From an uncultured bacterium (GTDB lineage: Bacteria; Babelota; Babeliae; Babelales; Babelaceae): a stretch of 64,000 nucleotides of DNA. The stretch lies in NCBI GenBank assembly GCA_963713855.1, contig OY970209.1, positions 1,440,001 to 1,504,000 of the forward strand, read 5' to 3'. Shown here piece by piece: positions 29,888 through 50,703 of the stretch; the stretch's first letter is position 1; every line of letters begins with the position of its first letter. A program made the translations under genes and the position numbers. The notes under the pieces are model-generated. The model worked only from the letters and a program-made list of their open reading frames with translations. It was not told the DNA's origin and searched no databases.

Positions 29888-30160
29888 GATAGGTTTTACC
29901 AGACTATTCGAGATCAGACCATTGGCGTTAATATCCAGCTCGAGCAACTCCAAGAGGACCAAGATAATTATTACGTTACAGCAAAATGCCTTCTGGGTTT
30001 AGCTAATCGAGCATTTGAACTTTTTACAAGTTCTGAAATTGAAGAAAAGCGACAGGTTATGAAACTTGTACTATCGAACGTCGAGATGGCCGGAAAAGCG
30101 CTCTACGACGTTCAACCGCCATTTGATATGATCCTAAAATGTTCGGATCGTCAACTATGG
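29888..30160 (+). pseudogene. 3' remnant of the large serine recombinase (copy 1)
   Basis: Aligns to 56609-56884 (EDNYY.TAKCLLGLANRA...KCSDRQLW). Confidence 0.92.
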
Positions 30161-30192
30161 CGTACCTAAGAGACTTATTCAGGAACAGAGAA
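30132..30192 (+). repeat. R1: attP-like junction (recombinase arm + right arm)
   Basis: TCCTAAAATGTTCGGATCGTCAACTA-TG-GCGTACCTAAGAGACTTATTCAGGAACAGAGAA (one G missing). Confidence 0.88.
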
Positions 30193-30277
30193 ACAAACTA
30201 GACACATTTTCACGTGCTTTAAGAATAGCTACGTGAAACACTAACCAAAAATACCTGCTCTTTCAAAGCTTATGCTG

Positions 30278-30559
30278 CTACTTCATTTCTCTGAACATTT
30301 TTAAATGCTTATTTTCGTCATTCATAAACACTTTCAGTTGACTCATATTGTAGCCATATCGCTCAAAAAGACCTCGAAGCTCAAGCAAGTCTAGCTTGGG
30401 TATATTTTTTGATACGACATACACGTATACCTCTTTCCCAATTCCCTTACATCCTATTACAGATTTAATCTTTTTAAGCCACTCAAACATTGCATCTTCA
30501 TCATATTGAGGAGAATAAAAGGTGAGCGGAGTTAATATAAGAGTAACTTGATCATTCAT
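30278..30559 (-). CDS. Putative immunity protein for the upstream Ntox37-like toxin
   Basis: Directly downstream of the toxin; FYSPQYDEDAMFEWLKKI..LLELRGLFERY..MSQL. Confidence 0.75.
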   Translation of the reverse strand: MNDQVTLILTPLTFYSPQYDEDAMFEWLKKIKSVIGCKGIGKEVYVYVVSKNIPKLDLLELRGLFERYGYNMSQLKVFMNDENKHLKMFREMK

Positions 30560-30566
30560 AATTTTT

Positions 30567-31450
30567 CTATTTAGTAGGAGGTCTAGTTTTTCCGCCGGGA
30601 TAGATATTATTTACACGATCTCCATCGGGATTTACAATATCCAATGTGGACCGGCATGACCATAAGGACCGCTTGGTACCCAATAGTTGCCATCTTTATC
30701 TGGCCAACCATGCTGATCAGTTTCGGGATGAGGCTGCTTTTTCCCATCAGAATTTTTGGGAGGAATATATCCATCTTTTTCACCAGGCTTATCAGGAATG
30801 GAAAGGTCATAAAGACGGTTGAACTCTTCCTAATTTGCAGTTCTTCCTGATGCACCAAACAACTTTTTAAAAGCTCCATTTACAAAGAATTTTGAAGCTA
30901 TTCCACCTAAAGTAGCGAGAACTCCCATTCCTACGGCATTCCAGCCAACAAAAGCTAAACCTTGGCCTGCTCCCCATGCAAAAAGCGGTATTATATTATG
31001 CACTAATATATCTTCTCTTGATACACAGAAATTATGATACTCCTCTACGGTAAGATCATAAGCAATATCATGAGTAACTATTTCTAAGATATGACCAACT
31101 TTAACGAACTCTAAGCAATTTTTTAAAAGTGAATGGCCTACTTTGAGCTCTTCTGCTTTTACCCACTTTCCTTCTAAAGGGAGATAAAATATGTGATCAT
31201 CTGCTACAACTATTTCCTCGCCATTAACAACAACGCGAAAAAAACGTGAAGCTCCTTTATGTTCTATATGCGTAACACTTCTCTCAATACAAGAGCCCTT
31301 AAAATCAAAACAAATGACTTTATCACCTTCTTTAAGCTCTTCTATTGGTATGTAGCCATTTGAGACTTTAACTAAAGTTCCACTTAAAAACCCTTCTCCT
31401 CGAGCAACGTTTATCGCCAAGAAACATATAAGTATTAAGATTCTTTTCAT
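30567..31450 (-). pseudogene. Hint-domain polymorphic toxin with Ntox37-like C-terminus, disrupted
   Basis: Signal + Hint (GFLSGTLV...YDLTVEEYHNFCV..ILVHN). In-frame TAG at 30830-30832, then PGEKDGYIPPK..GWPDKDGNYWVP..GHAGPHW, a 1-nt frameshift near 30641, then DIVNPDG..NIYPGG. Confidence 0.85.
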
Positions 31451-31663
31451 GCTTTTTCTCTTTAGATATTTCTAACGTACAATCAAATCTGCTTCAGTGT
31501 AGAATGAACTTTAATAAAGTCAACGGTGTGTTTGCTTGCAAGACAGTTGCTGTTAACAAGAAAGAAAACATAAATCAGGGCTGCGGTTAGAAAATGATGA
31601 GCTTAAAATTATTGAGGTTTTTAAAGCGGCTTAAAAACCTCTACCAAGACAGTATAGATAATA

Positions 31664-31714
31664 CCAGCCTTTAAGTGCTGGCGGCACCTAAGCGACGCAT
31701 TCGGAAATAGAGAG
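31664..31714 (+). repeat. R2: hairpin + right arm
   Basis: CCAGC-ctttaagt-GCTGG CGGCACCTAAGCGACGCATTCGGAAATAGAGAG. Confidence 0.9.
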
Positions 31715-31763
31715 ATTAAACCAAACTTACTTTTTAAAATAGGAGATCTCTTTAATTTCTTAC

Positions 31764-32828
31764 TCAATAAGTAATGGCAATAGTTTTGTCTTTACAATTT
31801 ATATGCACCAGCCCACCATTAGGAACAACTATTTGCGGGTCTGTATGACCAAAATTCAGATTAAAAACAACAGGAAGATTAGCGTTGTAATCCTGCAAAG
31901 CTTGCTGAATTGCTTCTCTCTGATTTGTTACATAGTGCCCTCTACCTTCAGGCGGCAACATATGCATAAACTGCGTCTTTGGTAACCCAACTAAGATAGC
32001 TTTCAATCGCCTAAGTATGTTACGCTCAGCAAGTGCCGCAACAAAGCGATAAATAAATCCAGAACTTGGCAACTCTTCTGATGTCTCAATATATAAGACA
32101 ATATCATCATGCTTTTCAAATTGGGGAAGATAATAGGGACTATTTACAGCAAGCTGTAAGTCCAAAACTTCTAAACAGCCTCCCCATAACCTACCCGATA
32201 GTACGCTATCATCACAATTATACCATTCCCAATTCGGAGTCCTTTCCATAGGACGCTTAATGAAAAGTTTACTTGTGTCACTCCAATCAAAATCATAATC
32301 AGTATATTCCGCGGGCTTATTTATATAACCAACTTCAGTATCAAACAAAGCCTTTTTTATAGAATTAATAGTGTAATCATGCATAGCACCTTGCATACCA
32401 AATTGCGACATAAGTGCACCGCCATAGTAAGAAATTAAGCCAAGATTCCATAATAAAACATGTATATTGGTTATATCACTATACCCTAGAAATATCTTAG
32501 GGTGAGCTAAAATAATTTTGCGATCTAAATAAGGCAAAATTCGAATACAATCACTTCCACCAGTTGTAGCAATTATTGCTTTAATTGAAGCATCTTCAAA
32601 AGCTGTATTGATGTCATCAGCACGTGCTTCTGGATTACGCGACAAATATTCTGGGCTTTTACGAGTAGTAGGCAATTCTATGGGAATAAGATTGAAAATA
32701 GTCTGCAAACGCCGAATACCAAGTTCGTAGACTTGGGGAAATAAGTAAGCACATGCTGCTGATGGAGATACAATAGCGACTTTGTCACCAGGTTGTAAAC
32801 GTGATGGTATAATAAAAGAGGCACTCAT
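31764..32828 (-). CDS. S66 peptidase (LD-carboxypeptidase / MccF-like)
   Basis: GDKVAIVSPS, ARADDIN, TGGSD, GYSDIT, GGCLE, YIETSE, FGHTDP. Confidence 0.93.
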   Translation of the reverse strand: MSASFIIPSRLQPGDKVAIVSPSAACAYLFPQVYELGIRRLQTIFNLIPIELPTTRKSPEYLSRNPEARADDINTAFEDASIKAIIATTGGSDCIRILPYLDRKIILAHPKIFLGYSDITNIHVLLWNLGLISYYGGALMSQFGMQGAMHDYTINSIKKALFDTEVGYINKPAEYTDYDFDWSDTSKLFIKRPMERTPNWEWYNCDDSVLSGRLWGGCLEVLDLQLAVNSPYYLPQFEKHDDIVLYIETSEELPSSGFIYRFVAALAERNILRRLKAILVGLPKTQFMHMLPPEGRGHYVTNQREAIQQALQDYNANLPVVFNLNFGHTDPQIVVPNGGLVHINCKDKTIAITY

Positions 32829-32830
32829 AG

Positions 32831-33334
32831 TTACAACTTTCTATTTCTTACCTTTCTCTTAAGCTTACCACGTTCTTTTTCTATAATTTTCTGATCTTGG
32901 GCATACCAAAGCATTTCTTCGGTATTTTTAAGTTTGCGCAAAAGCAATATGTTATGACCCCAAGCGAATCTAAAGACAGGAAGATTTTCAAAAAGTGGCA
33001 CAGCTTGTGCTACTTTTTCGTAAGCTAAGAAAAAAGCCTTCATTCTAAATATATTACTTCTTGAAAACCCTTCTATTCCAGGAAAAGCATTTTGTAAATC
33101 TTTGACAAGACGCTCAATGATCTGAGACCCCCAATGGCTAATCTCTTGTTTCTCTGTTATTGTTTTGCCTAAAGAGTAATGGAGTTTGATTAACTCTTTG
33201 TTTCCCCAAACAGCTGCTTTAATCTGAGACTCATAGATTTGTCTCTTCAGCGCTAATAGTATCTTAGTATAATCTTTAGCTAGAGCGAGAGTCGGCTTAG
33301 ATGTAGTTTCGCTTTTTTTCTTTATGCTTTTCAT
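32831..33334 (-). CDS. DUF1016/YhcG N-terminal domain only (truncated)
   Basis: QIKAAV..NKELIKL, WGSQIIERL..DL, GFSRSNIFRMKAF, WGHNILL; no nuclease half. Confidence 0.8.
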   Translation of the reverse strand: MKSIKKKSETTSKPTLALAKDYTKILLALKRQIYESQIKAAVWGNKELIKLHYSLGKTITEKQEISHWGSQIIERLVKDLQNAFPGIEGFSRSNIFRMKAFFLAYEKVAQAVPLFENLPVFRFAWGHNILLLRKLKNTEEMLWYAQDQKIIEKERGKLKRKVRNRKL

Positions 33335-33458
33335 TGAGTTCTCTCTACATAGTTCTTTAGCAAAAGCGATTTTGCTGGTAATTTTATCTTTTAATAATAA
33401 ACAAAAAACTTCCTAGAAAGGTGATAACCGCTTTTGAATGGTCTTATCGTAATAGATC

Positions 33459-33793
33459 TTGCAATTACCGTCAAACCTGGATATACCCACTTTTGATCTA
33501 ATAATCACTTCTTAATGAAGGATAAGCCAACGACCGTACTACTAACATATAGCGCGTATGAGCGTCGAGGAAGTACGTTCAAATTTGGCTCGCATAACTT
33601 CAAAGATGCAGATGCTTCAGCATCAGCGTCGAGCTCCTTCAAGCAGTAAGCTCATTCCTAGCCTAATGGTCCGAATGTCAGCTTCCATTTTAAGCGTCAA
33701 AGCTTACACGAAGCTTTTTCAATACTTTAAGCAAATTACACAACACACGATCAGCATAACTCATATGGCAAGGGCCATGAGGAAAACTATGTT
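33459..33793 (+). ncRNA. Promoter + conserved structured leader/ncRNA, copy A
   Basis: TTGCAA-17-TATACC; homologous to 51849-52158 with a covarying stem. Confidence 0.6.
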
Positions 33794-34031
33794 TTTGATT
33801 TATTTTTGAGTTCTGACGTAGAAGAGAAGCGTCATATTATTAAACTTGAGAGTGGAAGCTGAGTATGTCCTCTATGACGTTCAACCGCCATTCGATGTGA
33901 TCCTAAAATGTTCGGATCGTCAACTATGGCGGTACCTAAGCAACGCATTCAGGAATCGAGAAGCAAGCTTAAGGCAGTTACCAGCCTCTTTAAAAACTCT
34001 TGATACATTTTGCAGACAAAATGTCCTTTAA
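33794..34031 (+). pseudogene. 3' remnant of the recombinase (copy 2) with its attP-encoded tail
   Basis: LFLSSDVEEKRHIIKL...LYDVQPPFDVILKCSDRQLWRYLSNAFRNREASL... Confidence 0.9.
33901..33962 (+). repeat. R3: intact attP-like junction
   Basis: TCCTAAAATGTTCGGATCGTCAACTA-TG-GCGGTACCTAAGCAACGCATTCAGGA; 26-bp arms symmetric about TG. Confidence 0.92.
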
Positions 34032-34078
34032 AAGCTTAATCTATTGACTTTTTTTCCAATTTATTGGACAATTGCTCT

Positions 34079-34399
34079 ATGAGAGTAGTACTTAAAAAAG
34101 TTTACAAGCTTTATAAAACTCCTGAATATGGTGCTTGGCTTGAACAACAGACTTTTAAGTCCCAAGTACAGATTGCTGATCGCCTCTCTAAAATAGAATT
34201 AGAGGGACATTTCGGTAATCATAAATTTCTTGAAAATAATATTTGGGAGTTAAAGTGGGAAAATGGCAGAAGAATTTACTATGCCTATATTAGCTCTTTA
34301 GATATTTTAGTTTTACTTGGGGGAAATAAGAATGGGCAGAACAAAGACATTACACAAGCAAAAAGAATCTACAGAAAAAATGTTGAAACAGAAGATTAA
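34079..34399 (+). CDS. RelE/HigB-like addiction-module toxin
   Basis: WL..QIADRL..GHFG, IWELKW..GRRIYY, LLGGNKNGQNKDI. Confidence 0.88.
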   Translation: MRVVLKKVYKLYKTPEYGAWLEQQTFKSQVQIADRLSKIELEGHFGNHKFLENNIWELKWENGRRIYYAYISSLDILVLLGGNKNGQNKDITQAKRIYRKNVETED

Positions 34400-34676
34400 A
34401 AAAAGTGCTCAATTAAAACCTTACAATCCAACTGAAGATCTTTTAGATGAGAATTTTATTGGTAAAGCAATTTTAGAGTGTTTAAAAAATAATGATCCTG
34501 AGGGTGTAATGGAAGTGCTTTCGGTATATTTAAAAACAGTTAATAAGGTTAAATCTGCCCAACAAGCAAATATTGCACGTTCAACACTTTATCATAGCAT
34601 CAAAAGCAAAAATCCTACCATCAAGACATTGGCTAAGCTTGTTTCAATTCATTCATTAGAGTTTCGCACAAAGTAA
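34380..34676 (+). CDS. HTH addiction-module antitoxin
   Basis: Overlaps toxin end; IARSTLYHSI..NPTIKTL. Confidence 0.85.
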   Translation: MLKQKIKKSAQLKPYNPTEDLLDENFIGKAILECLKNNDPEGVMEVLSVYLKTVNKVKSAQQANIARSTLYHSIKSKNPTIKTLAKLVSIHSLEFRTK

Positions 34677-35025
34677 GCTGTTGGCAAGAAATTCTGTTAA
34701 TCGTCTTATAAAGAATGGAAAGTGCACAAATTTTGAGTATATCGAGATAGCGGGGCAAATGTACTTAAGGTGCTTTGGATCGGGAGCATAGAGGTAATGA
34801 AATTATAGGCTAAGAGAAAGTTAGCACTGGGTATCTAAGCTCAAATAGAAGTTGAAGCTTATCGAGAGCCTTATCATTCGTCTTGCCGGTCGCATTCAGT
34901 GTAGCATATTGATTACCACGAATATGAAATGCTCCCTTACGATCTCTCTAAACCCTGAATCCTTTATTAGCAAGACTAGCACGAAATCTTGTATGATCAA
35001 GCATCGTTTGCTCCCCCTCAAAAGA

Positions 35026-35076
35026 CCAGCTGTAAAAAGCTGGCGTTACCTAAGCGATGCATTCAGGAATAAAGAA
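35026..35076 (+). repeat. R4: hairpin + right arm
   Basis: CCAGCT-gtaaaa-AGCTGG CGTTACCTAAGCGATGCATTCAGGAATAAAGAA. Confidence 0.9.
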
Positions 35077-35158
35077 GTTAGACTAGATTTACGCTATCAT
35101 GCTATTCACGTCTCGTTATATAGATTTGTTAAATAACTAATATTTTGAAGCAAAGCGA

Positions 35159-36400
35159 TTAAGCAAGCCGTTTCATGTTCCACACAGCATACGCTTTTTC
35201 AATTTGTTGGCGAATTTGTGATGGTGGAATAAAAAGATAAGCATAGTTTTTTACCACTTCACCAGACTGACAAATGCCTTTTTGTTCCCATGCGTTGATA
35301 AGAGTTGCAATGTTAAATTCATGTGCAATGAGAAAGCCTATTATATAAAGGGCTCTCTCAACATGCGACGGATGTCGATCGGATAAACCTATTGTAATAA
35401 TACTTGGCTTTTCGTCTTCTTCTTCAGAAAGAAGTATGGTTATAAAGTTTAGTATGGCACTCATTTCTCCTAACTTTAAAAGTTGTCTCAATGCGAAAAG
35501 GTCAGCTCGTTGCTCAGTTGTTCGCTCATATAACGACAGAAGCTTGTTCTTTTCGCCTTCGGGCGGGATCCAAAGGAAACCGTAACGCTTAAGCACTCTT
35601 TGAGCTTCTGGCTCGGCTAATGCTTCCACTAATATTTTTCCGATCTTTGTATGACCGAAAGAAGGGAGTGTATGTATGCCAAGCTCTAGATAATCTTTAA
35701 TATCTTTTTGGTCGGATTTTACTAAAGGCTCGTTTAGGAAGCCCTGCATATCAACATCTCGAGTATCTCCGTGAACAATATGTCCGATCTCATGATAGAG
35801 GGTATACAGTCGAGAATCCAAATCAGGTGTTTTACACATGATTATATAGCTCTTCAAAGGTTTAGTGACTGCTTCACCAGCAAAGGATTTGGTTGTACTA
35901 AGGGCCCTTACTTCTTCTTGAAGACCCGCCAAACGTACGCCTTCGTCAACCAGTTTTTTCTGCATCGCTGTTGGTATTTCAACACCTTTTTCTTTAATAA
36001 GCAAATCAAGCTCAACTTCAGTTATTACTTCCTTTAGCCATGTTCTATCTATCCCATATATTGAAGAAGCTGGTACTAGTCCAAGAAGCTCTCTTAAAAA
36101 ATTGTAAGGATATAATAATATGTTCGGCCTCACACTAAGGTTAGGCTGAACAAGTCCATAATTAGCTCGATAAGCAACATTTTCTAGCCAATCAAAAAAC
36201 GTCAAGTCAGATTTGTCCAACTCTTTTAACAGCTCTTGTTTCCAACTCTTGTAATCTTTTCCTTCCACAGTGGGTTTTTCATTATAAACAAAGCTTCCTT
36301 TGTCAAAATCCATTACAAGGGTTATTCCACGAGGTGTTTTGCCATAACTGACTACAGTGAAGGCAAAAGATAAAATAATCGCTTGCATGATTTTTTTCAC
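35159..36400 (-). CDS. Exported M48-like zinc metalloprotease with one YNxLRE repeat
   Basis: YHEIGHIVH, TEQRADLFA, RHPSHVERALY. Confidence 0.8.
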   Translation of the reverse strand: MKKIMQAIILSFAFTVVSYGKTPRGITLVMDFDKGSFVYNEKPTVEGKDYKSWKQELLKELDKSDLTFFDWLENVAYRANYGLVQPNLSVRPNILLYPYNFLRELLGLVPASSIYGIDRTWLKEVITEVELDLLIKEKGVEIPTAMQKKLVDEGVRLAGLQEEVRALSTTKSFAGEAVTKPLKSYIIMCKTPDLDSRLYTLYHEIGHIVHGDTRDVDMQGFLNEPLVKSDQKDIKDYLELGIHTLPSFGHTKIGKILVEALAEPEAQRVLKRYGFLWIPPEGEKNKLLSLYERTTEQRADLFALRQLLKLGEMSAILNFITILLSEEEDEKPSIITIGLSDRHPSHVERALYIIGFLIAHEFNIATLINAWEQKGICQSGEVVKNYAYLFIPPSQIRQQIEKAYAVWNMKRLA

Positions 36401-36976
36401 AAAGAGCTCTCAAGAGGCATGATATTCATTAAATTTTTTTACTACCTATATATTTAATATTAGTTTTATTAATGCCAAAAAGTCAATGGTGTATTTTTAT
36501 AGCAAAACTTATCTCGTCAAATAGCCAATGAAAAGATCTTGAGGCTATAGGTAAAAAACTTTCTCGAAAGTCAATACCATTTTGCTTGACAGTATTGCTT
36601 ATAAACGGGATTATTGAATTATATTTTACCAAATTTTTCTAGATTTATGACCTAATCAACTCTATATCTGATCAGGGTAGCTAGACTGATGCGATAAACA
36701 TAAAATAGCTGTGATAGGCGTTTCTCTTCTTCTCCATGCTAGATAATGGAGAAGCTCGGTTGGTATATATTCCAAGTTTGAAAGGCTCAGATAGAGGTGA
36801 TTATTCGTTGCTACCTAAGTTGCTTCATCTTTATGGGGCGCCCGAAATCCCTCTGTTGCGATTTAGCAAAGAACTCTTTACTATAGGCGGGATTTTTCGG
36901 AAGAACAAAGATTAGCGATTATTAAGGCATTATTTCGCTGGCCCAGCGTAAATCGAAATAATGCAGGAGCTGCAAT

Positions 36977-37032
36977 CCAACTACTTTTTAAAGAGCTGGC
37001 GGTACCTAATTGACGCCTTCAGGAATAGGCAA
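36977..37032 (+). repeat. R5: hairpin + right arm
   Basis: CCAACT-actttttaaag-AGCTGG CGGTACCTAATTGACGCCTTCAGGAATAGGCAA. Confidence 0.88.
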
Positions 37033-37161
37033 GTAAGGCTTTTGTATATTTAAGCTGACTTTTAGTTTTACTAAAGAGAAACTTTGCTAAAGCATACTAT
37101 TATGCTCTTTCTACAGTAAATTATTGACATGCTATACTACACAGTGGTATGGTATAAGCAC

Positions 37162-37512
37162 GTGCTTAGAAATATTACCAACAACCTATTTCAGCAAAAT
37201 GAAAGACAATCTTCTAAAAAAGAGACAACTCTTTTAAGAAGATTATGATGTATTTCTTGAAGAATTAGCCAAAAACCCAGATTCAGGTGATGTGATTTCT
37301 GGCACAGGTGGTGTTCGAAAGATACGATTAAAATCAGCATCCAAAAGAAACGTGGTGGGTTTAGAGTTTGCTACTTTTACTTTCAGGCAAAGGAACGAAT
37401 ATACCTGTTTTATATCTTTGGAAAAAATGAGCAAGAAAAGATAACAGAAGAAGAGAAGAAAATTCTTAGGGACTTAGCAAGCTATTTTGAGAGGGGTTCA
37501 GAGCGTGAGTAA
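37162..37512 (+). pseudogene. RelE/HigB toxin, disrupted
   Basis: LAKNPDSGDVISGTGGVRKIR..KRGGFRVCYFY..GKNEQEKIT by hand translation; TAA at 37235 and frameshift near 37345. Confidence 0.85.
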
Positions 37513-37822
37513 ATTATTCAAAGCTTTAAAAGCAGGCTTCGAAGAAGCTATTGCACACGATCAAGGAAAGTTACAGCTTCGCTCAGAATGCATAGAGATT
37601 CCAGAACCACCTGCTCAATATAAAGCTAAAGAAATAAAGAAAATAAGAGAAAAAAATAAATATTCCCAAGCTATTTTTGCAAAGGTTCTTAACGTAAGTG
37701 TTAAAACCGTACAATCATGGGAATCGGGACAACGTGTCCCGAGCCAATCAGCATTACGCCTTCTTGAAATCGTAGAAAAAGGAATTTATAATCCTCAAAT
37801 TTATAGAAAATCAATTAGTTAG
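37505..37822 (+). CDS. HigA-like Xre HTH antitoxin
   Basis: IKKIREK..SQAIFAKVLNVSVKTVQSWESGQRVPS. Confidence 0.9.
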   Translation: MSKLFKALKAGFEEAIAHDQGKLQLRSECIEIPEPPAQYKAKEIKKIREKNKYSQAIFAKVLNVSVKTVQSWESGQRVPSQSALRLLEIVEKGIYNPQIYRKSIS

Positions 37823-37907
37823 ATGACGAATTACTGCCACAGAACAGTTGATTTATCCTAATCTCTTTCTTTACTTATTCTTTAAAGAGCTATTAAAAGC
37901 ATTGTTT

Positions 37908-37961
37908 GCCAGCTTTATTAAGCATTGGCGGCACCTAAGCGACGCATTCAGTAAAAGAGAA
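37908..37961 (+). repeat. R6: hairpin + right arm
   Basis: GCCAGCTT-tatt-AAGCATTGGC GGCACCTAAGCGACGCATTCAGTAAAAGAGAA. Confidence 0.9.
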
Positions 37962-38099
37962 ATAAGAATAATCTCTGTAAGACCCAATAAACTCAAATAA
38001 AGCCTCTTTTTTACGTTAAAGAACAAATGGTTGACTTTGACTTAGCTTATTTTAGAATAAGCACAAAGTTGATTATGTATTAAAAGTGTATCAAAACTT

Positions 38100-39020
38100 A
38101 TGAAAAATCTTCTAGCTTTTATTTATTTTTTAGCAGCAGCCTGCGCTCATGGAGAAGGCTTCTTAGCAGGAACTTTAGTTAAAACTCCAAATGGCTACAC
38201 TCCTATAGAAAAACTGCAAGAGAAAGATTTAGTAATTTGCTATGACTTTCAGGGAAACTGTGTCACAAGAAGGATAACAAAGACTTTTAAGCAATCTACC
38301 TCTGATTATATCCGCTTGTGGATTAACGATGAGTTAATTGAAGTTGCTTCTGATCACAAATTTTTTCTACCTCTTGAAAATCGCTGGATCGAAGCGAAAT
38401 GCGCTAACTCTAAGCATGTTTTTTTGAGTAGATGTATCGATTTAGTTCTAATTACTGCTGCTCAATATCTGACAAAACAAGCAGAAGTTTACGACATTAC
38501 GGTAGAAGAGTTTCATAACTTTTGTGTTTCCAATCAAGATGTTCATGTGCACAATATATCACCTGTAGTAGCAATTGGTATCTCTTGGGCCTTTGAAGGA
38601 CCTATTGTCTGGACAGCTTCTATCGGACTTGCCGGCTTAGGATGGGGAATTGGATACTTGCTTTCAAGTAATCGTCATGCGAGACCGCAAACTCACTTTA
38701 ATGCCGACGAATTTGGACAAAGATTTAACAACAAAAAGCATCACGAAGAAAGCTATCACACAACAGCAGCTAGTGGAGGATCTTCTGATGACTTTGATGA
38801 TGAAGATCCTTATAAAGAAGAACAACACAAAAGCAAGCAAATGAAAAAGCTTTCCGAAGGAGAAATTAAAAAATTGGAAGCTGCTGGAATTGATGTGCAC
38901 ACGCTTAAGCCAAATTCAAAATTTGATCTTTTCAAGAATCAGGCCGGTGAAATTTTCGTAAAACCCAAAGCAGGCAATGGTCCTGGCGACTCAACAGGCT
39001 TTAACATCAATAATTTTTAA
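38100..39020 (+). CDS. Hint-domain polymorphic toxin with Ntox33-like C-terminus
   Basis: Signal + Hint (GFLAGTLV..VYDITVEEFHNFCV..VHVHN) + hydrophobic linker + GIDVHTLK..FDLFK..IFVKPK.G.GPG..TG. Confidence 0.85.
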   Translation: MKNLLAFIYFLAAACAHGEGFLAGTLVKTPNGYTPIEKLQEKDLVICYDFQGNCVTRRITKTFKQSTSDYIRLWINDELIEVASDHKFFLPLENRWIEAKCANSKHVFLSRCIDLVLITAAQYLTKQAEVYDITVEEFHNFCVSNQDVHVHNISPVVAIGISWAFEGPIVWTASIGLAGLGWGIGYLLSSNRHARPQTHFNADEFGQRFNNKKHHEESYHTTAASGGSSDDFDDEDPYKEEQHKSKQMKKLSEGEIKKLEAAGIDVHTLKPNSKFDLFKNQAGEIFVKPKAGNGPGDSTGFNINNF

Positions 39021-39023
39021 GCT

Positions 39024-39422
39024 ATGAAATACGAATACAAAACCCTTGTCCGTCTTAAAATTTTGAGCACGACTCTTAGCCCCGAACAAATCACCTATGA
39101 ATTAGGAGTTGCTTGTGAACAATCTTGGAAGATTGGTGATAATCGAGCATCGAGTATTATTAAAGAAACAACCAATGGGTGGGTTCTTGGTTCAGGGTTT
39201 TCTCAATCAACACCCCTGGAAGAACAACTTGAGCCTTTCCTTAACCGTTTAACTACCTATTCTGCTAAAATTCGTCGATTATCTGTACACAATATTGTTG
39301 AGCTTTCTTGCATTGTCTACGCTGTGGCCCCTCCTGCTCTCTATTTTAATAAGAACGTTATCTCATCCATTGCTAAACTCGGGGCAAATTTTGACATCGA
39401 TTTGTACATTTTAGCAAAATAG
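39024..39422 (+). CDS. DUF4279-type immunity protein
   Basis: PEQITYELGV..WKIGD, W.L.S, LGANFDIDLY; 3 nt after the toxin stop. Confidence 0.85.
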   Translation: MKYEYKTLVRLKILSTTLSPEQITYELGVACEQSWKIGDNRASSIIKETTNGWVLGSGFSQSTPLEEQLEPFLNRLTTYSAKIRRLSVHNIVELSCIVYAVAPPALYFNKNVISSIAKLGANFDIDLYILAK

Positions 39423-39485
39423 TATTCATCTTATCCGGGCTCTACTTCACTCCAAAACTCCGTAGAACAAGTTTAAGAAAAAGAA

Positions 39486-39803
39486 TCATCGTTTTGCCGG
39501 CAAGCTAAATTTTAAATCAAATCCCATTGCTTGCACGATTACTGTTAAAGTACTTAAACGCGGGTTGCCGCTAGGCGATAATGTTTTATATAAACTTTCT
39601 CTACCTAAACCAGTTTTCCGCGATAGCTGCGCATAACCACCTTGAGCTAACGCAACAATTTCAAGAGCCATAAGAAGTAGTTTTTGTGATTCTTCATCTC
39701 CTTTTTTGCATTCGTCTAAAACTGAGTTTAGATAAGCAATAGCTTCTTCTGGATCCTTTAAAGATTCGACTAAGAGATCTTGATATTTTTTACTTCTTGG
39801 CGT
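39486..39803 (-). CDS. Orphan HTH addiction-module antitoxin (start codon appears mutated to ACG)
   Basis: Frame extends upstream of the ORF-track call: PRSKKYQDLLVESLKDPEEAIAYL...GLGRESLYKTLSPSGNPRL; RBS GAGGGG before ACG. Confidence 0.8.
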   Translation of the reverse strand, partial: TPRSKKYQDLLVESLKDPEEAIAYLNSVLDECKKGDEESQKLLLMALEIVALAQGGYAQLSRKTGLGRESLYKTLSPSGNPRLSTLTVIVQAMGFDLKFSLPAKR

Positions 39804-39951
39804 ATTTCTTACCCCTCATAATATGGTTGAATAAATAGCAAAATAGCCTTACCGCGTAGTTTACTTGGACGCAAGTTTCTATAAATTGCTAATCCAAAAG
39901 CAGAGATGGAAAGTGTCTTAATAAAAATTATTTAACTTTTGACTGAAAGAT

Positions 39952-40011
39952 GCCAGCTGAAAGCCTTTCGAAAGCTGGCGGTACCTAAGCGACGCATTCA
40001 GGAATAGGGAA
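39952..40011 (+). repeat. R7: hairpin + right arm (consensus copy)
   Basis: GCCAGCT-gaaagcctttcgaa-AGCTGGC GGTACCTAAGCGACGCATTCAGGAATAGGGAA. Confidence 0.93.
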
Positions 40012-40159
40012 ATTAAGTTTCATCTACAATATATTCAAAATTAACTTTTACCCTTCTAAAAGTTCTAAGCCGTTTAAGATCTTCTTTGCTTCATCCATTG
40101 AGGATAGATCATATATAGGATATATTAATAGTATAAGTGTTATATAAAGGAATAATCCT

Positions 40160-40366
40160 GTGGAAATTATAGCGTTCGAAGCAACAACAGAAAAGGGAGT
40201 CATAAAGATCCCTCAACAGTATCTTAAATCAATGACTCCTTACGTACAGGTAATTATAGTAATTGAGGAAGAAAAGAAACATAAAAAGCCTAAGGTTGAA
40301 TTTAAAGCTCTCAGTATCGATACAAAAAAAGTTAAATTTAACCGAGACGAAGCAAATGAACGATAA
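40160..40366 (+). CDS. Putative VapB-type antitoxin
   Basis: GVIKIP..VQVIIV, FNRDEANER; overlaps the PIN gene. Confidence 0.75.
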   Translation: MEIIAFEATTEKGVIKIPQQYLKSMTPYVQVIIVIEEEKKHKKPKVEFKALSIDTKKVKFNRDEANER

Positions 40367-40766
40367 TATCGTTTTCTTTGACACGAATATACTCGTTTAT
40401 CTTTACACGCAAAGTGAACCTGAAAAAAAGGATGCTATTATAAAGCTTATAGGCTTATATAAATCTCTATTCATTAGCACGCAAGTTATTAATGAGTTTA
40501 TTAATGTGATGCTCAAAAAACATCAAGCATCATATGAGCAGGTAATGGCTGCCTTACAAAAAGAAATACTCGTCCAATTTAACCTTCTTACTGTTACGCA
40601 AGTTACTATCCACAAGGCTCTCACGATAGGAGATAGATATAAATACTCTTATTACGATTCTTTAATAATAGCTGCAGCGCTGGAGTGCGATGCCTCCGAA
40701 TTATATTCAGAAGACATGCATGATGGACATACAATTGAGTCGCTTCAGATAACCAATCCTTTCTGA
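40356..40766 (+). CDS. VapC-like PIN toxin
   Basis: FFDTNILVY, ISTQVINEF, YYDSLIIAAAL, LYSEDM, ITNPF. Confidence 0.92.
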   Translation: MNDNIVFFDTNILVYLYTQSEPEKKDAIIKLIGLYKSLFISTQVINEFINVMLKKHQASYEQVMAALQKEILVQFNLLTVTQVTIHKALTIGDRYKYSYYDSLIIAAALECDASELYSEDMHDGHTIESLQITNPF

Positions 40767-40796
40767 GAAAGGCTTTTTTAAGGCATAAGCTTCCAT

Positions 40797-40853
40797 GCCA
40801 GCTGCTTTAACGAAAGCTGGCGGTACTTAAGCGACGCATTCAGGAGCAAAGAA
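40797..40853 (+). repeat. R8: hairpin + right arm
   Basis: GCCAGCT-gctttaacgaa-AGCTGGC GGTACTTAAGCGACGCATTCAGGAGCAAAGAA. Confidence 0.92.
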
Positions 40854-40966
40854 ATTAGACTTAGGTTAAGTTTGAGCGATATAAAAGGGCTTTATTGCAA
40901 GCTGCGACGTTATGAACATCTATTCTTAGAAAGCAGAAAACTAGTTTGACCATCAATAATAATACA

Positions 40967-41539
40967 CTAAGCCGCAGGTGCAGCTGGAGCAGCATAGGGC
41001 AGCGCTGTCAAAATAGCTATTACCTTTAAATAATAGTAAATTTTCCTAAAAACTATAAGAGGAAGTCCCACAAAAATTACAATAACTGCGGCAATTACAT
41101 ACAGAATCGCACTAAAAATCATACTCCTTATAGCTGCATCGAACAGCAAGTAAAGACCTGCTATTATTGGCCTTTCTTCAAAAAACTTAAATAGCTGTTC
41201 TATGTCATCAACTTTAGCAACAGCATCAAGGATTGCGGTAGGAAGCCCCATAAAAATAAATATAGCTAAAGTATACTTTGCGCCTCCAATAGGAAGCGCC
41301 ATTGCATGAAGAATGATACCCTCTACAGCCGTTGCACATAACAAGAATAAATCTTGCATTTTTGGCGGCATGTCTTTAAAAAAATTAGATGAGCACTCTA
41401 ACCTACCATCATTATTGGCTATATCGGCCCGTTTACAAGCCTCAGGGTCAATTGTCGTAAAATGCATCAAATCTAGAGTAGGATCAGCCTCATAAGAAGA
41501 CTTTTTAATACGACATTTACAACCTAGACTAACACTCAA
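40967..41539 (-). CDS. Hypothetical membrane protein, probably 5'-truncated
   Basis: Hydrophobic C-terminal half; 5' end abuts a TA remnant at ~41551. Confidence 0.5.
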   Translation of the reverse strand: MSVSLGCKCRIKKSSYEADPTLDLMHFTTIDPEACKRADIANNDGRLECSSNFFKDMPPKMQDLFLLCATAVEGIILHAMALPIGGAKYTLAIFIFMGLPTAILDAVAKVDDIEQLFKFFEERPIIAGLYLLFDAAIRSMIFSAILYVIAAVIVIFVGLPLIVFRKIYYYLKVIAILTALPYAAPAAPAA

Positions 41540-41604
41540 TGGCTCTTCGAAAGCCGCGATATTGAAAAAGCAAAGCGATATTGGCTTGATTGCGAAAGGT
41601 TATT

Positions 41605-41907
41605 ATGAAAAGAAGATTTAGGGATTATCAAGAAAAACCTTACGCAGACTTAAAGGACTCAGAATTAGCTAGTGCCTATCTTAACGTAGCGCTTATGGAG
41701 GAAGATCCACGCGTCTTTTTATTTGCGTTAAAGAATGTTTATGAAGCTCAAGGCGGAGAAATGGCTGATCTTGCTCGAAAGACAAAATTGAGTCGCGAAA
41801 ATCTTTATCGCATACTTTCAGAAAAAGGCAATCCCAAGCTTAGTATCGTATCTTTGCTTAATGCTATAGGATTCTCACTCGCCGTGCAACCTCGTAAAAA
41901 TAAATAA
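41605..41907 (+). CDS. HTH antitoxin, near-identical paralog of 54113-54415, with only the last ~55 nt of its toxin upstream
   Basis: 41551-41907 aligns to 54059-54415. Confidence 0.9.
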   Translation: MKRRFRDYQEKPYADLKDSELASAYLNVALMEEDPRVFLFALKNVYEAQGGEMADLARKTKLSRENLYRILSEKGNPKLSIVSLLNAIGFSLAVQPRKNK

Positions 41908-42062
41908 TCTTAGAAAGAAAGTTTTAGTTTTCTCAAAAGGAAGCACTACCATGGCTAGCGTAAACAAAGATGCTGTTGGCTTAAATTTATTTGGGTCAAT
42001 CATGCTGAACTTGTCTTGGCTTAAAATTAGAGCAATTCTATAAGAAAATAATAGCCCATCTA

Positions 42063-42091
42063 TTGACCGACGGTCGGTCGCATGCTATAAG
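42063..42091 (+). promoter_or_regulatory. Sigma70 promoter overlapped by a probable TetR operator
   Basis: TTGACC-17-TATAAG with extended TG; perfect palindrome GACCGAC-G-GTCGGTC at 42065-42079. Confidence 0.8.
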
Positions 42092-42129
42092 ATGTCTATT
42101 ATCAATTATCAAAACAGTGGAAATTAAAT

Positions 42130-42795
42130 ATGGCTAGAATTGTAAAAAAGCCCACCGAACGAAGATCAGATATTGTGAATGCTGCTCGCTGCCTGTTACT
42201 GACAAAGGCATATGACAAAACAACCATGCAGGATGTAATGGACTATTTAGGTATTGCTAAAGGAACTATTTATCACTACTTTGAATCTAAGGAAGCACTT
42301 TTGGAAGCTGTCATAGCAAGCATCGTTGATACGCATATCGAACAAATGCAGGCCCTGATCAATGAGGCAACTGGAAATGCCTTAGTAAAAATTAAGATTC
42401 TGGTAGAAGCGAGCAATATGGCCAAAGATAACAACGTCATTTTTGATCATCTTCATCGGCCAGGCAGTCATGCCATACATATAAGTCTCCTTGCAGCAAC
42501 TTTGGTAAAATTGGCTCCCTTATATGAAAAACTGATTCAACAGGGCTGCGAAGAAGGCCTTTTTCAGACAGATACCCCGCTTGAATGCGCTGAGTTTATT
42601 CTTTCTGCTATTCAGTTTCTAACTGATGTGGGGATTTACCACTGGACACAAAAAGATTTAAGTCGTAGAGCACACGCTTTCCCCAAATTAATAGAGCAGC
42701 ATTTGAGAGCGCCGCCAGGTTCATTTTACTTTATGGCGACGCATATTAAACCCGCCGCTAAAAGTGATTTACAGCATACTTTAGTTGAAAGGTAA
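42130..42795 (+). CDS. TetR-family regulator
   Basis: YDKTTMQDVM..LGIAKGTIYHYFESKEALL. Confidence 0.93.
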   Translation: MARIVKKPTERRSDIVNAARCLLLTKAYDKTTMQDVMDYLGIAKGTIYHYFESKEALLEAVIASIVDTHIEQMQALINEATGNALVKIKILVEASNMAKDNNVIFDHLHRPGSHAIHISLLAATLVKLAPLYEKLIQQGCEEGLFQTDTPLECAEFILSAIQFLTDVGIYHWTQKDLSRRAHAFPKLIEQHLRAPPGSFYFMATHIKPAAKSDLQHTLVER

Positions 42796-42801
42796 TCTAT
42801 C

Positions 42802-44018
42802 GTGTCAAATTTTGCTGTTGATATACATGAATTATATAAATCATATGGGATTTTCATGTATTAAAAGGCGTTAACATGCACGTAGAGTCTGGTACAATCT
42901 TTGCGTTACTTGGCCCAAATGGGGCGGGAAAAACAACAATGCTGCGTATTTTAATGACACTTTTAAAGCCTGATTCAGGTTCTATCTTAATAAATGGTAT
43001 TGATACAATTAAACATCCAAATCAGGTTAAACAGGTAATAGGAATAGTTGGTCAGTGTGCATCAGTTGATGGCCAATTAACTGGTTTAGAAAATCTGCGA
43101 ATGATCGATAGGTTGCATCATTTAAGCATAGAAGAGGCTAATAATAATGCACATAGACCAACATCAGATGATGTATTTAAGACCCTGACAAAAGCAAATG
43201 GAAGGGTAATTATGACTGTGTATAGAAACTCTATCAAAAAATTAAGCTGGTTCTTAAGTGATGCATTTGTACTTGCTAAGCGAAATTTATTACATATATC
43301 ATGTGATCCTGATCAAATCTCTGGGTTACTCGTTTTACCAATTATGTACACCCTATTATTTCGTTATTTGTTTGGCGGAGCTATAGATAAGATGACATTC
43401 GCTGATGTGGGGACTGGAGATTATATTACTTATATTATGGCTCGGGCGTTTGTTATAAATATTTTATTTGCCTCAATAATCACCTGTGTAGGAGTTGCAA
43501 ATGATTTGACAAAGGGTGTTGTAGATCGCTTTCGCTCACTACCAATTAGCCCGTCATCGGTGATTTTGAGTTATCTTCTTGCCAGTGGTCAGTCAATGAT
43601 TATTATTGCAATAATGACTATTCTGGGACTCATTATGGGATTTCAGCCAACGACGATTCCAATCAAATGGTTAAGTGCTTTGGAAATGTTAGTACTTATG
43701 ACATTAGCAATCTCATGCCTTATGATATTGATTGGTGTATCATCTAAAAATGTTGAATCAGCACAACAATTTGGCGGTCTACTCGTTTTGTCATTATCAA
43801 TGATTAGCTCTGCTCTTGTTCCAACCCAGACAATGCCATCTTTTTTACGTATAATTGCACAAAATCAACCATTTACTCATGCAATTGAAGCAATACGTTC
43901 ATTGCTTTCTGGAACCGATATTGGTAATCATCTTTTTATGTCTTTGATCTGGTTTATAGGTATTATCATCATTACTTTCACCTTGAGCACATATTTATTT
44001 TCTAGCTCGAGTGAATGA
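42802..44018 (+). pseudogene. DrrAB-like ABC exporter: internally deleted ATPase running into ABC-2 permease
   Basis: Walker A GPNGAGKTT without signature or Walker B, jumping to the RPT..DDVF C-terminal motif; frameshift near 42850; six-TM permease follows. Confidence 0.78.
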
Positions 44019-44040
44019 GAACCGGATAAAGGGCTATGAA

Positions 44041-46356
44041 ATGTGGATATCAATACTAAAAAAAGATTTTCTCAAAAACAAAGGCATCACTTCAGCATTA
44101 GTCATTTTCATCTCAGTATCAGCATTACTTATTGCTTGTGGAACAAGCATGATCTCTGAATTATATAATTCTTTAAACTACCTATTTGCTAAATCTAATG
44201 TTCCTCATTTTCTTGTAAAGCATTCTGGAAAAATCAATCAAGCAGAGATTGAGCAGTGGTCATTGAATAATAGTCTAGTAAAGAACGAACAGACAACTGA
44301 GATGCTTAGTATCGATAGATCAAACATTTATTTAGGCTATAGCAACAGGTCTGAGTATGATAGCGTAATGAACATTGATTTTGTTAAGCAGAATTCTTCT
44401 ATGGATATACTGCTTAACAAAAAAGGGCAAGTCATTCGGTTATCAAAAGGGGAAGTTGCAGTTCCACTCTATTATATGCAATTAAAAAACATGAAAATTG
44501 GCGACAGGGTTAGAGTTGCCAATAAAGATTTTGATATGAGTTTTACTGTTGTTGATTTCGTTCGAGATGCTTTGATGAACCCATCATTAGTGCATTCAAA
44601 GCGCTTCGTAGTAAATGATGATGATTTTGAAATCCTTAAAAAGAATATTGGAGAAATTGAATACTTTATCGAATTTCGCCTTGCTGATATAAGTAAGCTA
44701 AATGAATTTAGAAATGCATATCAGGCATCCAATTTGCCCCAAAATGGACCAATGCTTGATTTTAACTTGATAAAACTTTTAAATGCTTTATCAGATGGTC
44801 TTGTGGCTGCAATAATATTGCTGATAAGTATATTGCTTACTATTATTGCTGTTCTTTGCTTTAGATTTACTATTCTTACGACTCTCCAAGAGGATTATAA
44901 AGAAATTGGCGTAATGAAAGCAATTGGCATTTTGCAACAGGATATCCAAAGAATATATCTGGCCAAATATATCTTAATAGCTGCTATAGGTACAGTGCTT
45001 GGATATTTGGCCTCTTTATTTTTTAATCAGCTGTTTATGGAGAATATCATTATCTATTTAGGGATTGCGCCAAAAACTATTTTAAACCACGTAAGTCCTT
45101 TGATTGCAGTTATCATAATATTCTTGATAATAATATCCTCTTGTGGGGTGGTACTTCGAAAAATAAATAAAATATCACCCATAGAAGCCTTGCGTGGTGG
45201 AATTATCGGGGAAGCACAGAAACTCAAAAGTAATATGTCTCTGTACAAGAATAGATTATTACCTGTTGATATTTTTCTGGGAGCACAAGATGTATATCAA
45301 CGATTAAGAAGCTATATGGTTTTACTCCTAATTTTTTTCTTTTGCTCATTTATGATCATTGTTCCTATAAATTTTCTTAATACTATTAAATCGCCTAATT
45401 TTATTACATACATGGGGATAGGCCGTTGTGATATCAGAATAGATTTGCAACGGACAGATAACATTCCTGAAAGATTTAATAATCTGATTACATATCTCAA
45501 AAATGACCCGGATGTTGCACAGTTTTCCCCGTTAGTTACCAGTCGGATTAAGACGATAAATGATGGTGTCCAGCAAAATATTAATGTTGAAACAGGGAAT
45601 TTTTCGGGATTTCCACTAGAGTATTTGGCAGGCTCAGCTCCAAAGCATATTAATGAAATTGCTCTTTCCGTTCTTAACAGTAAAGAATTTAGAAAGCACG
45701 TTGGAGATAGCTTGCGATTAATAATCGATAAACAAGAAAAAAACATGAAGATTACCGGTATTTATCAGGATATAACTAATGGTGGGCTAACAGCAAAAGC
45801 GGTATTGCCATTTAATCATGAAACAGCGTTATGGTATATAATTAACGTAAATGTAAAACAGGGCGTTAACGTACAAAAAAAAATTGATGAGTATGCAAAA
45901 ATTGCTAATCCAGCCAGGATTAGTGACTTGGCAAAATATCTATCTCAAACCTTAGGGAATACTATCAACCAATTAACGCTTTTCACAATCTCTGCTATCC
46001 TCATCGCCCTGTTTATTTCACTATTAATTACCTATTTATTTCTAAAATTGATACTTGCAAATGAATCCTCTCAAATAGCTATTATGAGAGCTATTGGTTT
46101 TACATTAAACGATATTCGACTGCAATATGTAACGAGAGTATTGCTAGTGCTTGTCCTTGGAATAATTTTCGGGACAATTATTGCTAACACAGTTGGTCAA
46201 AGCATAATTAATTTATTGTGGTCATTTTTAGGTGCTTCGAAGGTTAAATTCGTTGTATTTCCTATACAGACTTATGTTATTATCCCTCTCGTAGTAATGT
46301 TTGTTGTAGCTATTACTGCATTAATGAGCATGTTGTCCATACATAAAGCTAAATAA
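44041..46356 (+). CDS. FtsX/MacB-like ABC permease
   Basis: Two FtsX halves: EDYKEIGVMKAIG and ESSQIAIMRAIGF. Confidence 0.9.
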   Translation: MWISILKKDFLKNKGITSALVIFISVSALLIACGTSMISELYNSLNYLFAKSNVPHFLVKHSGKINQAEIEQWSLNNSLVKNEQTTEMLSIDRSNIYLGYSNRSEYDSVMNIDFVKQNSSMDILLNKKGQVIRLSKGEVAVPLYYMQLKNMKIGDRVRVANKDFDMSFTVVDFVRDALMNPSLVHSKRFVVNDDDFEILKKNIGEIEYFIEFRLADISKLNEFRNAYQASNLPQNGPMLDFNLIKLLNALSDGLVAAIILLISILLTIIAVLCFRFTILTTLQEDYKEIGVMKAIGILQQDIQRIYLAKYILIAAIGTVLGYLASLFFNQLFMENIIIYLGIAPKTILNHVSPLIAVIIIFLIIISSCGVVLRKINKISPIEALRGGIIGEAQKLKSNMSLYKNRLLPVDIFLGAQDVYQRLRSYMVLLLIFFFCSFMIIVPINFLNTIKSPNFITYMGIGRCDIRIDLQRTDNIPERFNNLITYLKNDPDVAQFSPLVTSRIKTINDGVQQNINVETGNFSGFPLEYLAGSAPKHINEIALSVLNSKEFRKHVGDSLRLIIDKQEKNMKITGIYQDITNGGLTAKAVLPFNHETALWYIINVNVKQGVNVQKKIDEYAKIANPARISDLAKYLSQTLGNTINQLTLFTISAILIALFISLLITYLFLKLILANESSQIAIMRAIGFTLNDIRLQYVTRVLLVLVLGIIFGTIIANTVGQSIINLLWSFLGASKVKFVVFPIQTYVIIPLVVMFVVAITALMSMLSIHKAK

Positions 46357-46389
46357 TTGAAGTAATTCAGGAGTAATAGGATAATTTTT

Positions 46390-47154: not shown

Positions 47155-47289
47155 TGTGGCTTAAAAACATTGAGATTTCTTATTTTTCATAAAAATAAGA
47201 AGGATTTTGTTATTCTTATGTAACTTATGGAGATAGCGTGGTTCATCGCAAATTACAGCCTATTTTGCCCACGGGATACGAGCTCCGTG

Positions 47290-47828
47290 ATGAAGCTCAT
47301 AGTAATATACGATTCTTGCGTTCTTTATCCAGCACCATTGAGGGATCTTCTTATGCGCCTTGCACTTACGGACCTTTATCAGGCAAAGTGGACCCACAAG
47401 ATTCATGAAGAATGGATTTATAACCTTTTAAAAAAGCGCCCTGATCTAACGGAAGAACGACAAAAGAAAACATGAACCTGTACGTTAGAGATTGTCTAGT
47501 TAGAAGGCTATGAGAAATTAATCGATAAGCTAACATTACCTGATCCATGCGATCGGCACATTTTAGCCGCAGCCATCGATACGAAAGCGCATTTAATTAT
47601 CACTTTTAATCTGCGAGACTGTTCCCCTTAATATTACGGCTCATTATGGGGTCCAAGCGATATATCCTGATGTGTTTCTTGCATCCTTGCTAAGTAAAGA
47701 TATAGATACAGTTATCCAAACAATGCGAGAAACAAGGCTCAGTTTAAAGAAGACAGCAAAAAATCCTGAATACTTAGCTACTTCCTAAAACTGTTGCTTA
47801 TGTGCGCAAATACATAAACTTCATTTAA
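47290..47828 (+). pseudogene. PIN-domain toxin, multiple frameshifts
   Basis: YDSCVLYPAPLRDLLMRLA..W...IHEEW; later frames give LVxGYE, LPDP.DRHILAAAI, IITFNLRD, PDVFL. Confidence 0.82.
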
Positions 47829-47880
47829 TGACGCAATGCCTTAATAGGATAATATTGCATAATCAGGCTCGCTAAATGAT

Positions 47881-47934: not shown

Positions 47935-48008
47935 GTACGCTTACCTATTTTTCATAAACACAACACAATAGGCAAAAATATTTTATTTAGCATAGTTTCT
48001 AAACAAAC

Positions 48009-50678: not shown

Positions 50679-50703
50679 TAACTTGCTCCTCTTATTTAGC
50701 AAT

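Follow-up and report, generated by a model that had tools for sequence, protein, structure and literature searches.

A probable fossil junction of serine-recombinase elements within a tandem array at the CCA end of a tRNA-Asp gene

The 54 bp at positions 33901–33954 of the window—the whole 64,000-nt stretch of DNA analyzed here—most probably constitute a fossil junction left by integrative elements that are driven by a large serine recombinase (LSR) and insert at the 3′ CCA end of tRNA genes. Judged from its composition, the site is a hybrid, in which a decayed, recombinase-bearing unit meets the unit inserted next: its left neighbor is a unit with the last ~150 bp of the LSR gene left, and its right neighbor is a HigB/HigA-like toxin–antitoxin unit. 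The site is regarded as a fossil because the sole LSR gene of the genome is a pseudogene, and the array to which it belongs is now frozen, since every LSR copy and the partner Rep gene are broken here. To judge from the reading frames, the recombinase is dead in this genome and intact in many little-studied relatives.

The left (P) arm (33901..33926, + strand) comprises the final 26 coding bases that precede the Trp codon in an LSR remnant and is identical in three copies; recombinase residues 450–484 were mapped by tblastn to 33828–33932. The core, TGGCGG (33927..33932, + strand), is the reverse complement of positions 71–76 of tRNA-Asp (CC, the discriminator G, and CCA), and reads as Trp and Arg codons in the recombinase frame. 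The right (R) arm (33933..33972, + strand), part of the next inserted unit, was recognized from a profile match (nhmmer, E = 5.6e-9), its in-frame translation, and its coding signature, and it prolongs the recombinase reading frame (…QLW|RYLSNAFRNRE…, within the ORF 33846–34031). The conserved right arm is ~45 nt long and encodes a recombinase tail.

A sequence-only reading had earlier described the 54 bp as an attP-like site symmetric about the TG that matches the terminal CA of the tRNA. Its landmarks were confirmed: TCCT at 33901–33904 and AGGA at 33951–33954 place the midpoint between T33927 and G33928, TGG at 56882–56884 corresponds, as its reverse complement, to the CCA that the tRNA-Asp(GTC) gene encodes, and the outer arms, compared by hand over 15 nt, match at 9/15 positions. 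The left arm together with the first five core bases (32 nt, ATCC…TGGCG) is indeed identical at 30131, 33900, and 56855 (three matches, 0 mismatches; 0 expected from 100 shuffles), and the reported divergence upstream of it is borne out by ~6 variable sites in 30 columns. The GAC assigned to positions 16–18 is present in the right-arm consensus but reads AAC in the 33901–33954 copy, and the right arm is not confined to the three recombinase ends, there being 10 copies in the window. With respect to symmetry, 10/24 arm positions agree about TG at 33901–33954 alone, and other registers score 9–11, so the TG symmetry is not distinctive there; across 11 homologous elements, it holds for the outer arms but not for the inner arms. 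The term attP-like is apt for the composition of the site (recombinase 3′ end, core, and conserved right arm), but a stand-alone 54-bp attP is not present. Assignment to an attachment-site junction of an LSR is supported, as is the claim that the tRNA is kept intact without a long duplication, just 6 bp being common to the tRNA and the junctions.

The sole recombinase gene of the genome occupies 55436..56890 (+ strand) as a pseudogene: its frame shifts near 55890 and again near 56430, an in-frame TGA interrupts it at 56738, and it terminates as W-R-G-stop within the target tRNA-Asp(GTC) (56882–56958, − strand), whose CCA end abuts the recombinase 3′ end. Two 3′ remnants accompany it in the window, which holds no intact, expressible LSR gene: one at 33785..33932 (+ strand; tblastn), covering residues ~431–484 with one frameshift and the rest of the gene deleted, and an older one at 29888..30163 (+ strand), covering residues 392–484 and ending in a junction core that lacks one G. 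The domains found by Pfam are those of an LSR—namely Resolvase, Recombinase (PF07508), and Zn_ribbon_recom (PF13408)—and were found also in an intact relative and in a circular element described below; the PF00239 match of the window fragment (2.3e-18) likewise recurs in both. The catalytic-region residues R8 and S10 are invariant (11 and 14 sequences). In an AlphaFold model of a natural full-length recombinase, with a mean pLDDT of only 69, long helices (335–414) follow the zinc ribbon, and the tail residues 458–507 have pLDDT values below 50 and no confident fold.

The site is one of 11 junctions (10 internal junctions plus that at tRNA-Asp itself) in a tandem array of inserted units that covers 27 kb at the CCA end of tRNA-Asp. 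The internal junctions span 30157..50765 on the + strand, with the core T at 30157, 31679, 33927, 35041, 36997, 37926, 39976, 40818, 47899, and 50721, and the right arm (TGGCGG TACCTAAGCGACGCATTCAGGAA…) occurs in ten copies between 30157 and 50721, all on the + strand. Nine of these copies were matched by an nhmmer profile of the right arm at E ≤ 1.1e-8, and the tenth, in which one core G is lost, at 0.008; beyond the ten, the profile found none elsewhere in the window, and none was found elsewhere in the 1.52-Mb genome at ≤3 mismatches. Left of 30157, no right arm was detected by nhmmer, and the original attL of the island was not found; the 821-aa gene flanking the island shows no synteny with the related genomes G001, G003, and G004. 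The left arm is a recombinase 3′ end at three junctions and a short hairpin-prone arm at the other seven.

Ten units of 0.8–7.1 kb each are delimited by the 11 junctions. Their cargo includes Gp49/HI1420 toxin–antitoxin pairs, a PIN protein, an ABC transporter, an LD-carboxypeptidase, a PT-HINT/Ntox33 toxin with DUF4279, and others. The segment 33450–33794 is homologous to 51840–52159 of the youngest unit. One unit carries, at 38100–39422, a PT-HINT/Ntox33 polymorphic-toxin C-terminal module and its DUF4279 partner, and a second PT-HINT fragment lies in a different unit (30830–31450); these pieces look like orphan toxin–immunity cassettes. A HigA-like antidote gene occurs twice, in two different array units (41550–41900 and 54058–54411), with 93–94% identity between the copies. 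Cassettes common to several genomes were limited to scattered 65–80% matches, too few for breakpoint mapping. Outside the window, the same genome has a flank resembling the L modules described below after tRNA-Gln (~42.4 kb) and a Glu-type right arm (TGGCGT…) 4.3 kb from tRNA-Glu (351.9–356.2 kb), indicating that the same system visited other tRNAs, with no recombinase left there.

Right arms are coding sequence. Past the Trp codon, right arms encode W-(R/L)-x-L-V-D-x-F-R-N-x-x-I-E-F-x-F-S/T-L-x-x-I-Q-T-I/L-F…, adding 25–50 conserved codons in the LSR frame. This frame is open for at least 15 codons at 32/37 sites, compared with 8/37 and 7/37 in the other two frames, and the entropy of the right arm by codon position is 1.03, 0.73, and 1.34 (n = 10). 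Furthermore, two metagenome records of 7698 and 7702 nt (L235 and L236) begin and end with the same sequence (exact repeats of 123 and 127 nt) and are 99.99% identical once circularly permuted. The resulting ~7.6-kb circle carries an uninterrupted 540-aa LSR ORF (1054–2676 in L235) across attP, compared with ~485 aa in the integrated state, together with a Rep-like gene (gene X), an MvaI/BcnI restriction enzyme, a DNA methylase, and a SpoVG-like gene. Because a single ORF runs over the site, attP is placed inside the recombinase gene, with integration removing the tail. In the free circle as assembled, attP thus lies within the 3′ part of the LSR gene and comprises a left arm encoding …CSDRQLW, the core, and a right arm encoding the tail of 25–50 residues. 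An att site within the recombinase ORF is the defining feature of self-splitting integrases, and on the evidence of these records it is present here, in proteins that have serine-recombinase domains, rather than those of the archaeal SSV-type tyrosine recombinases, and in hosts that are bacterial by their record titles.

LSR homologues were found in 22/61 related genomes, the present one counted. At 13/14 loci of relatives, the ~485-aa gene runs up to a tRNA and has its 3′ end on the CCA, always with the identical register …(A)TGG; the contig of the 14th stops before the 3′ end of the gene. Among public genome contigs (281 loci in total), 55 of the 80 kept loci have a tRNA in frame with the ORF; the other 25 comprise 11 junctions of recombinase end, core, and right arm, eight loci whose tRNAs are uncalled, cut, or offset, two with a different end, and four that are truncated. 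Metagenome contigs (80 loci kept of 371) gave 44 loci abutting a tRNA of 54 evaluable ones, some of these LSR loci duplicating genome records. The targets of the family are tRNAs for Asp, Glu, Asn, Gln, Arg (four anticodons), Leu, and His, and the hosts, as labeled in record titles, are Dependentiae/Babeliales and some Patescibacteria. None of the IMG/VR viral contigs encodes a protein related to the recombinase, and no two near-identical genomes were found of which one has the site occupied and the other empty.

A simple rule describes the core: in every type, the first six bases of the right arm are those of the last six of the cognate tRNA, and this holds also at distal sites and attP-like sites. 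The core is TGGCGG for Asp; TGGCGT for Glu, or TGGCAT if the tRNA, too, carries A; TGGCTG for Gln; TGGCTC for Asn; and TGGCGC or TGGTGT for Arg. Identity between core and tRNA mostly ends at base 6, extending to nine bases in G006 and the circular element. A degenerate pattern of the right arm gave 43 matches in 20/61 genomes, compared with eight for the reversed control. In two loci labeled Patescibacteria (L106 and L116), the tRNA-Asn junction reads TG, not TGG, and the encoded CCA lacks one C; the recombinase there has Met or Leu in place of the otherwise invariant Trp.

The left side of the target is variable. Among tRNA-Asp flanks in 30 relatives, classified by eye, six are a recombinase end, nine (plus three doubtful) are an L module—the distinct 30–60 nt sequence in which units without an LSR end—and 11 are unrelated and often terminator-like; one genome (G038) fits no class, with no TGG before the tRNA body at the junction. 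The 11 unrelated flanks imply a virgin target without a conserved left half, which would fit insertion beside any left arm. Target left arms range over a recombinase end, an L module, and an unrelated flank; as attB sites of LSRs normally have two recognized half-sites, such variability is unusual. In G001, 2.2 kb separate tRNA-Asp from an LSR remnant, and a unit lacking a recombinase occupies this interval, a layout that fits insertion at the tRNA side, with the younger unit nearest the tRNA.

L modules open with a core-like TGGC(NN), continue with (A)GCCAG, and end with …GAAGAC before the core, and their GCCAG can pair with either flanking (C)TGGC. Examples are found at L033 (16371–16425 and 19374–19428) and in the tRNA-Asp flanks of L132, L133, L136, L139, L140, L150, and L156; G019 has two in tandem. 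In G004, a 49-bp L module stands on both sides of a 3-kb unit. Comparison of the L module with the right arm across 21 recombinase-less junctions showed no clear center of symmetry, the best score being an internal palindrome of the right arm. Among eight left arms, the minimum-energy folds of six pair (G)CCAG(C) with a (G)CTGG(C) that stops at core base 4; the z-scores are only −0.4 to −3.3. The idea that the L module is a native tRNA trailer was rejected, as it is absent both from the 11 plain tRNA-Asp flanks of relatives and, in this genome, from the tRNAs that are not targets. In G003 (L034), a complete site of L module, core, and right arm, located ~14 kb from tRNA-Asp, is inverted relative to the intact recombinase, and may be the trace of an inversion.

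The recombinase has a frequent partner, gene X (373–396 aa), which lies directly upstream of it in 49/95 loci. In the youngest unit of the window, it is present as a frameshifted copy (52643..53745, + strand; tblastn); other copies are at L034 (2027–3214, − strand) and L235 (5352–6524), and that of the circle is 45% identical to the G003 copy. No Pfam or PHROGs match was obtained for gene X. Its language-model neighbors bear Phage_CRI/G2P domains, and a structural model (pLDDT 84) matches Inoviridae G2P at 1.7e-6 and unnamed viral proteins at 7.7e-9, with a weak match to a RepDE rolling-circle initiator (2e-3, probability 0.95). Gene X is thus likely, on the strength of the predicted fold, to be a rolling-circle replication initiator of the G2P/RepDE-like kind.

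These observations suggest how the array may have arisen. Integration at a target of the form X-core-tRNA splits the tail from the LSR gene, and, to judge from the junction sequences, the integrated LSR then ends a few codons into the tRNA, with the discriminator and CCA kept or regained. Later units would insert at the tRNA-proximal junction, pushing older units outward, and repeated insertion would leave junctions composed of the left arm of an older unit, the core, and the right arm of a younger one. The same arrangement could in principle have been produced by the partner: the junctions would then be start and stop sites of a rolling-circle Rep protein, with units copied out between neighboring origins and the recombinase acting at the tRNA only. 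The fold matches of gene X and its pairing with the recombinase speak for this, as do the hairpins contained in the L modules that end recombinase-less units, and one island has right-arm-like modules without a TGG core. We consider it improbable, however, as no nick-site motif was identified, the tRNA-type core is kept at every junction, and the right arm is already explained by its coding for the recombinase tail and by its inverted repeat with the recombinase 3′ end. The island in question is the tRNA-Arg island of G004 (L038, oriented), with modules (…GTTGACGCATTCAGGAAC…) at 315, 8991, and 10965. It is extremely improbable that an integron-like or tyrosine-recombinase system built the array with the serine recombinase as a passenger. 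Small toxin–antitoxin-rich units separated by imperfect palindromic sites are what such a system would leave; against it, a Pfam scan of 50 window ORFs revealed no domain of a tyrosine recombinase, three tRNAs were the sole Rfam matches in the window, the tRNA and the site have 6 bp only in common, and the 3′ end of a serine recombinase is part of the site in three window copies and at more than 100 loci elsewhere. Insertion of LSR-driven elements at tRNA ends is the preferred reading of these junctions.

On this sequence evidence, strand exchange must fall within the 6-bp core, whose six shared bases hide the exchange point, so that sequence comparison cannot place the crossover within it. 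The variant cores (TGGCGT at 35041, TAGCGG at 50721 and in G001, and one G missing at 30157) may be later mutations or inherited junctions, and so are no help in placing it. A crossover at bases 5–6 (C72–C71 of the tRNA; GG here) is given nearly an even chance, and one at TG or GG inside CCA is conceivable, its chance being distinctly below even; what remains goes to an exchange elsewhere or to no classical 2-bp exchange. The symmetry of 11 elements bears on both: the outer arms (15–26 bp from the center) are symmetric about TG at 61/132 positions, compared with ~36 in other registers, and the inner arms (1–14 bp) about bases 5–6 at 71/154, compared with ~36, TG scoring 32. Two nested inverted repeats are thus present with centers 4 bp apart—the inner about bases 5–6, the outer about TG—which do not appear to fit a simple symmetric dimer site. 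In the Asp type, the inner repeat is CGTCAACTA … TAGTTGACG, centered on bases 5–6, and compensatory changes within it are seen as GTCAAG/CTTGAC (Arg), ATCAAG/GTTGAT (Glu), and ACCCAC/GTGGAC (Gln).

The earlier model combined a symmetric ~54-bp attP centered on TG with a 2-bp crossover at the CA that closes the CCA; the tRNA would stay chromosomal in full, and the universal CCA would let any tRNA be targeted. We rate it as rather unlikely, a TG crossover being a minority hypothesis, for all that several observations favor it: the symmetry of the outer arms about TG, the near-equal half-sites formed about TG by the identical left block (27 nt) and by a right arm taken as far as AGGA or GGAAC, and the switch from variable recombinase coding sequence to tRNA sequence exactly at TGG. 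The lack of palindromy at TG also favors it. Among 55 loci, core bases 1–2 (TG) and 2–3 (GG) are palindromic in 0/55, bases 3–4 in 47, 4–5 in 23, and 5–6 in 7, the last of which argues against a general crossover at bases 5–6. However, the inner arms are at background about TG and bear the compensatory changes of the Arg, Glu, and Gln types about bases 5–6, and the outer match about TG is A/T-rich and, read by hand, free of covariation. A TG crossover furthermore leaves without reason the copying by the right arm of the tRNA-specific bases 4–6, which extends to the single-base variant TGGCAT, seen in G054 at the tRNA as well as at the distal site. A crossover at bases 5–6 alone explains the six shared bases, since four would rebuild the discriminator and CCA and two must match.

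A broader reading with four parts is put forward tentatively, its chance of holding as a whole being somewhat short of even. It proposes bacterial serine recombinases with attP in their own gene, in which loss of the tail at the tRNA would act as a switch from an integration-competent circle to a locked or excision-only form. The two acceptor-stem bases beside the discriminator would be the crossover dinucleotide, so that retargeting among at least 10 tRNA species would come down to these two bases plus the four that rebuild the tRNA end. With a rolling-circle Rep partner, recombinase-less units would be moved in trans, and the outcome would be integron-like arrays of toxin, antitoxin, restriction, and transport genes in the reduced genomes of Dependentiae and Patescibacteria. 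If true, a recombinase cut by its own integration would be a new means of setting directionality with no additional factor. For the insertion of large DNA, serine integrases serve as the main tools, and their target choice and direction are open engineering questions; the readable rule found here, with the core equal to the last six tRNA bases in a naturally retargeted family, makes specificity directly testable. The elements also offer an account of accessory-gene gain (toxin–antitoxin, polymorphic toxin, and restriction genes) in symbiont-like Dependentiae and Patescibacteria of 1–1.5 Mb, the latter label being taken from record titles and not from phylogeny.

The elements apparently represent a widespread and undescribed variant of serine-integrase elements. 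In the open full-text literature, supplements aside, no serine recombinase at tRNA CCA ends was found, nor any serine recombinase gene spanning attP, nor elements of this kind in Dependentiae, and the word tRNA is absent from the available main text of a large LSR survey (PMC10083194). Like the phage-type LSRs (phiC31, Bxb1, A118, and TP901-1), the recombinase has Resolvase, Recombinase, zinc ribbon, and long helices in that order, and short att sites with apparently imperfect dyad symmetry and little sequence common to attP and attB. It differs in having at most 32% identity to any phage record, the solved-structure match being to the N-terminal domain of TP901-1 alone (1e-5). It also targets tRNA CCA ends and not the interior of protein genes, whereas serine-recombinase elements integrate within genes, according to the available part of a review of integrative mobilizable elements (PMC5704250). 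A further difference from the phage-type LSRs is that attP lies in the recombinase gene and repeated insertion makes arrays.

Staphylococcal and enterococcal cassette chromosomes (SCC) employ Ccr serine recombinases at the 3′ end of rlmH, a gene that is not destroyed, and form tandem composite arrays with repeated short sites and recombinase-less units. The present system is alike, by description, in combining a serine recombinase at the 3′ end of a housekeeping gene with tandem arrays, and unlike in having a tRNA target, one recombinase in place of a pair, a gene that spans the site, and a Rep partner. Integrons resemble it in their arrays of small cassettes with many toxin–antitoxin or toxin–immunity pairs and in sites with hairpin potential; here, however, there is no IntI among the 50 ORFs scanned and no attI by an integrase, the genes do not share one orientation, and insertion takes place at the end of a tRNA.

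Tycheposons share the tandem tRNA-linked islands: in the available text of their description, successive integrations occur at one tRNA, with older elements pushed inward and degraded integrases, and tyrosine recombinases serve 910/937 elements of the set, with partial tRNA copies of ~40 nt (10.1101/2020.12.28.424599). The present system has a serine enzyme and repeats 6 bp of the tRNA, and the hallmark of tycheposons, a deep-branching tyrosine recombinase with partial tRNA repeats, was not encountered at this array. A parallel in design is offered by the archaeal SSV-type "suicidal" tyrosine integrases, in which the site also lies inside the integrase gene, integration at a tRNA splits that gene, and, as far as the available text describes, the intact gene exists in the circular form only (PMC8371274). 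They differ from the family described here, in which the enzyme is a serine recombinase, the hosts are bacterial, and the last 25–50 codons rather than the catalytic part are removed. Self-disrupting recombinases are known from archaea only, according to the available part of that 2021 review (PMC8371274); the present elements would, if the reading is true, extend this archaeal-exclusive design to bacteria and to serine enzymes.
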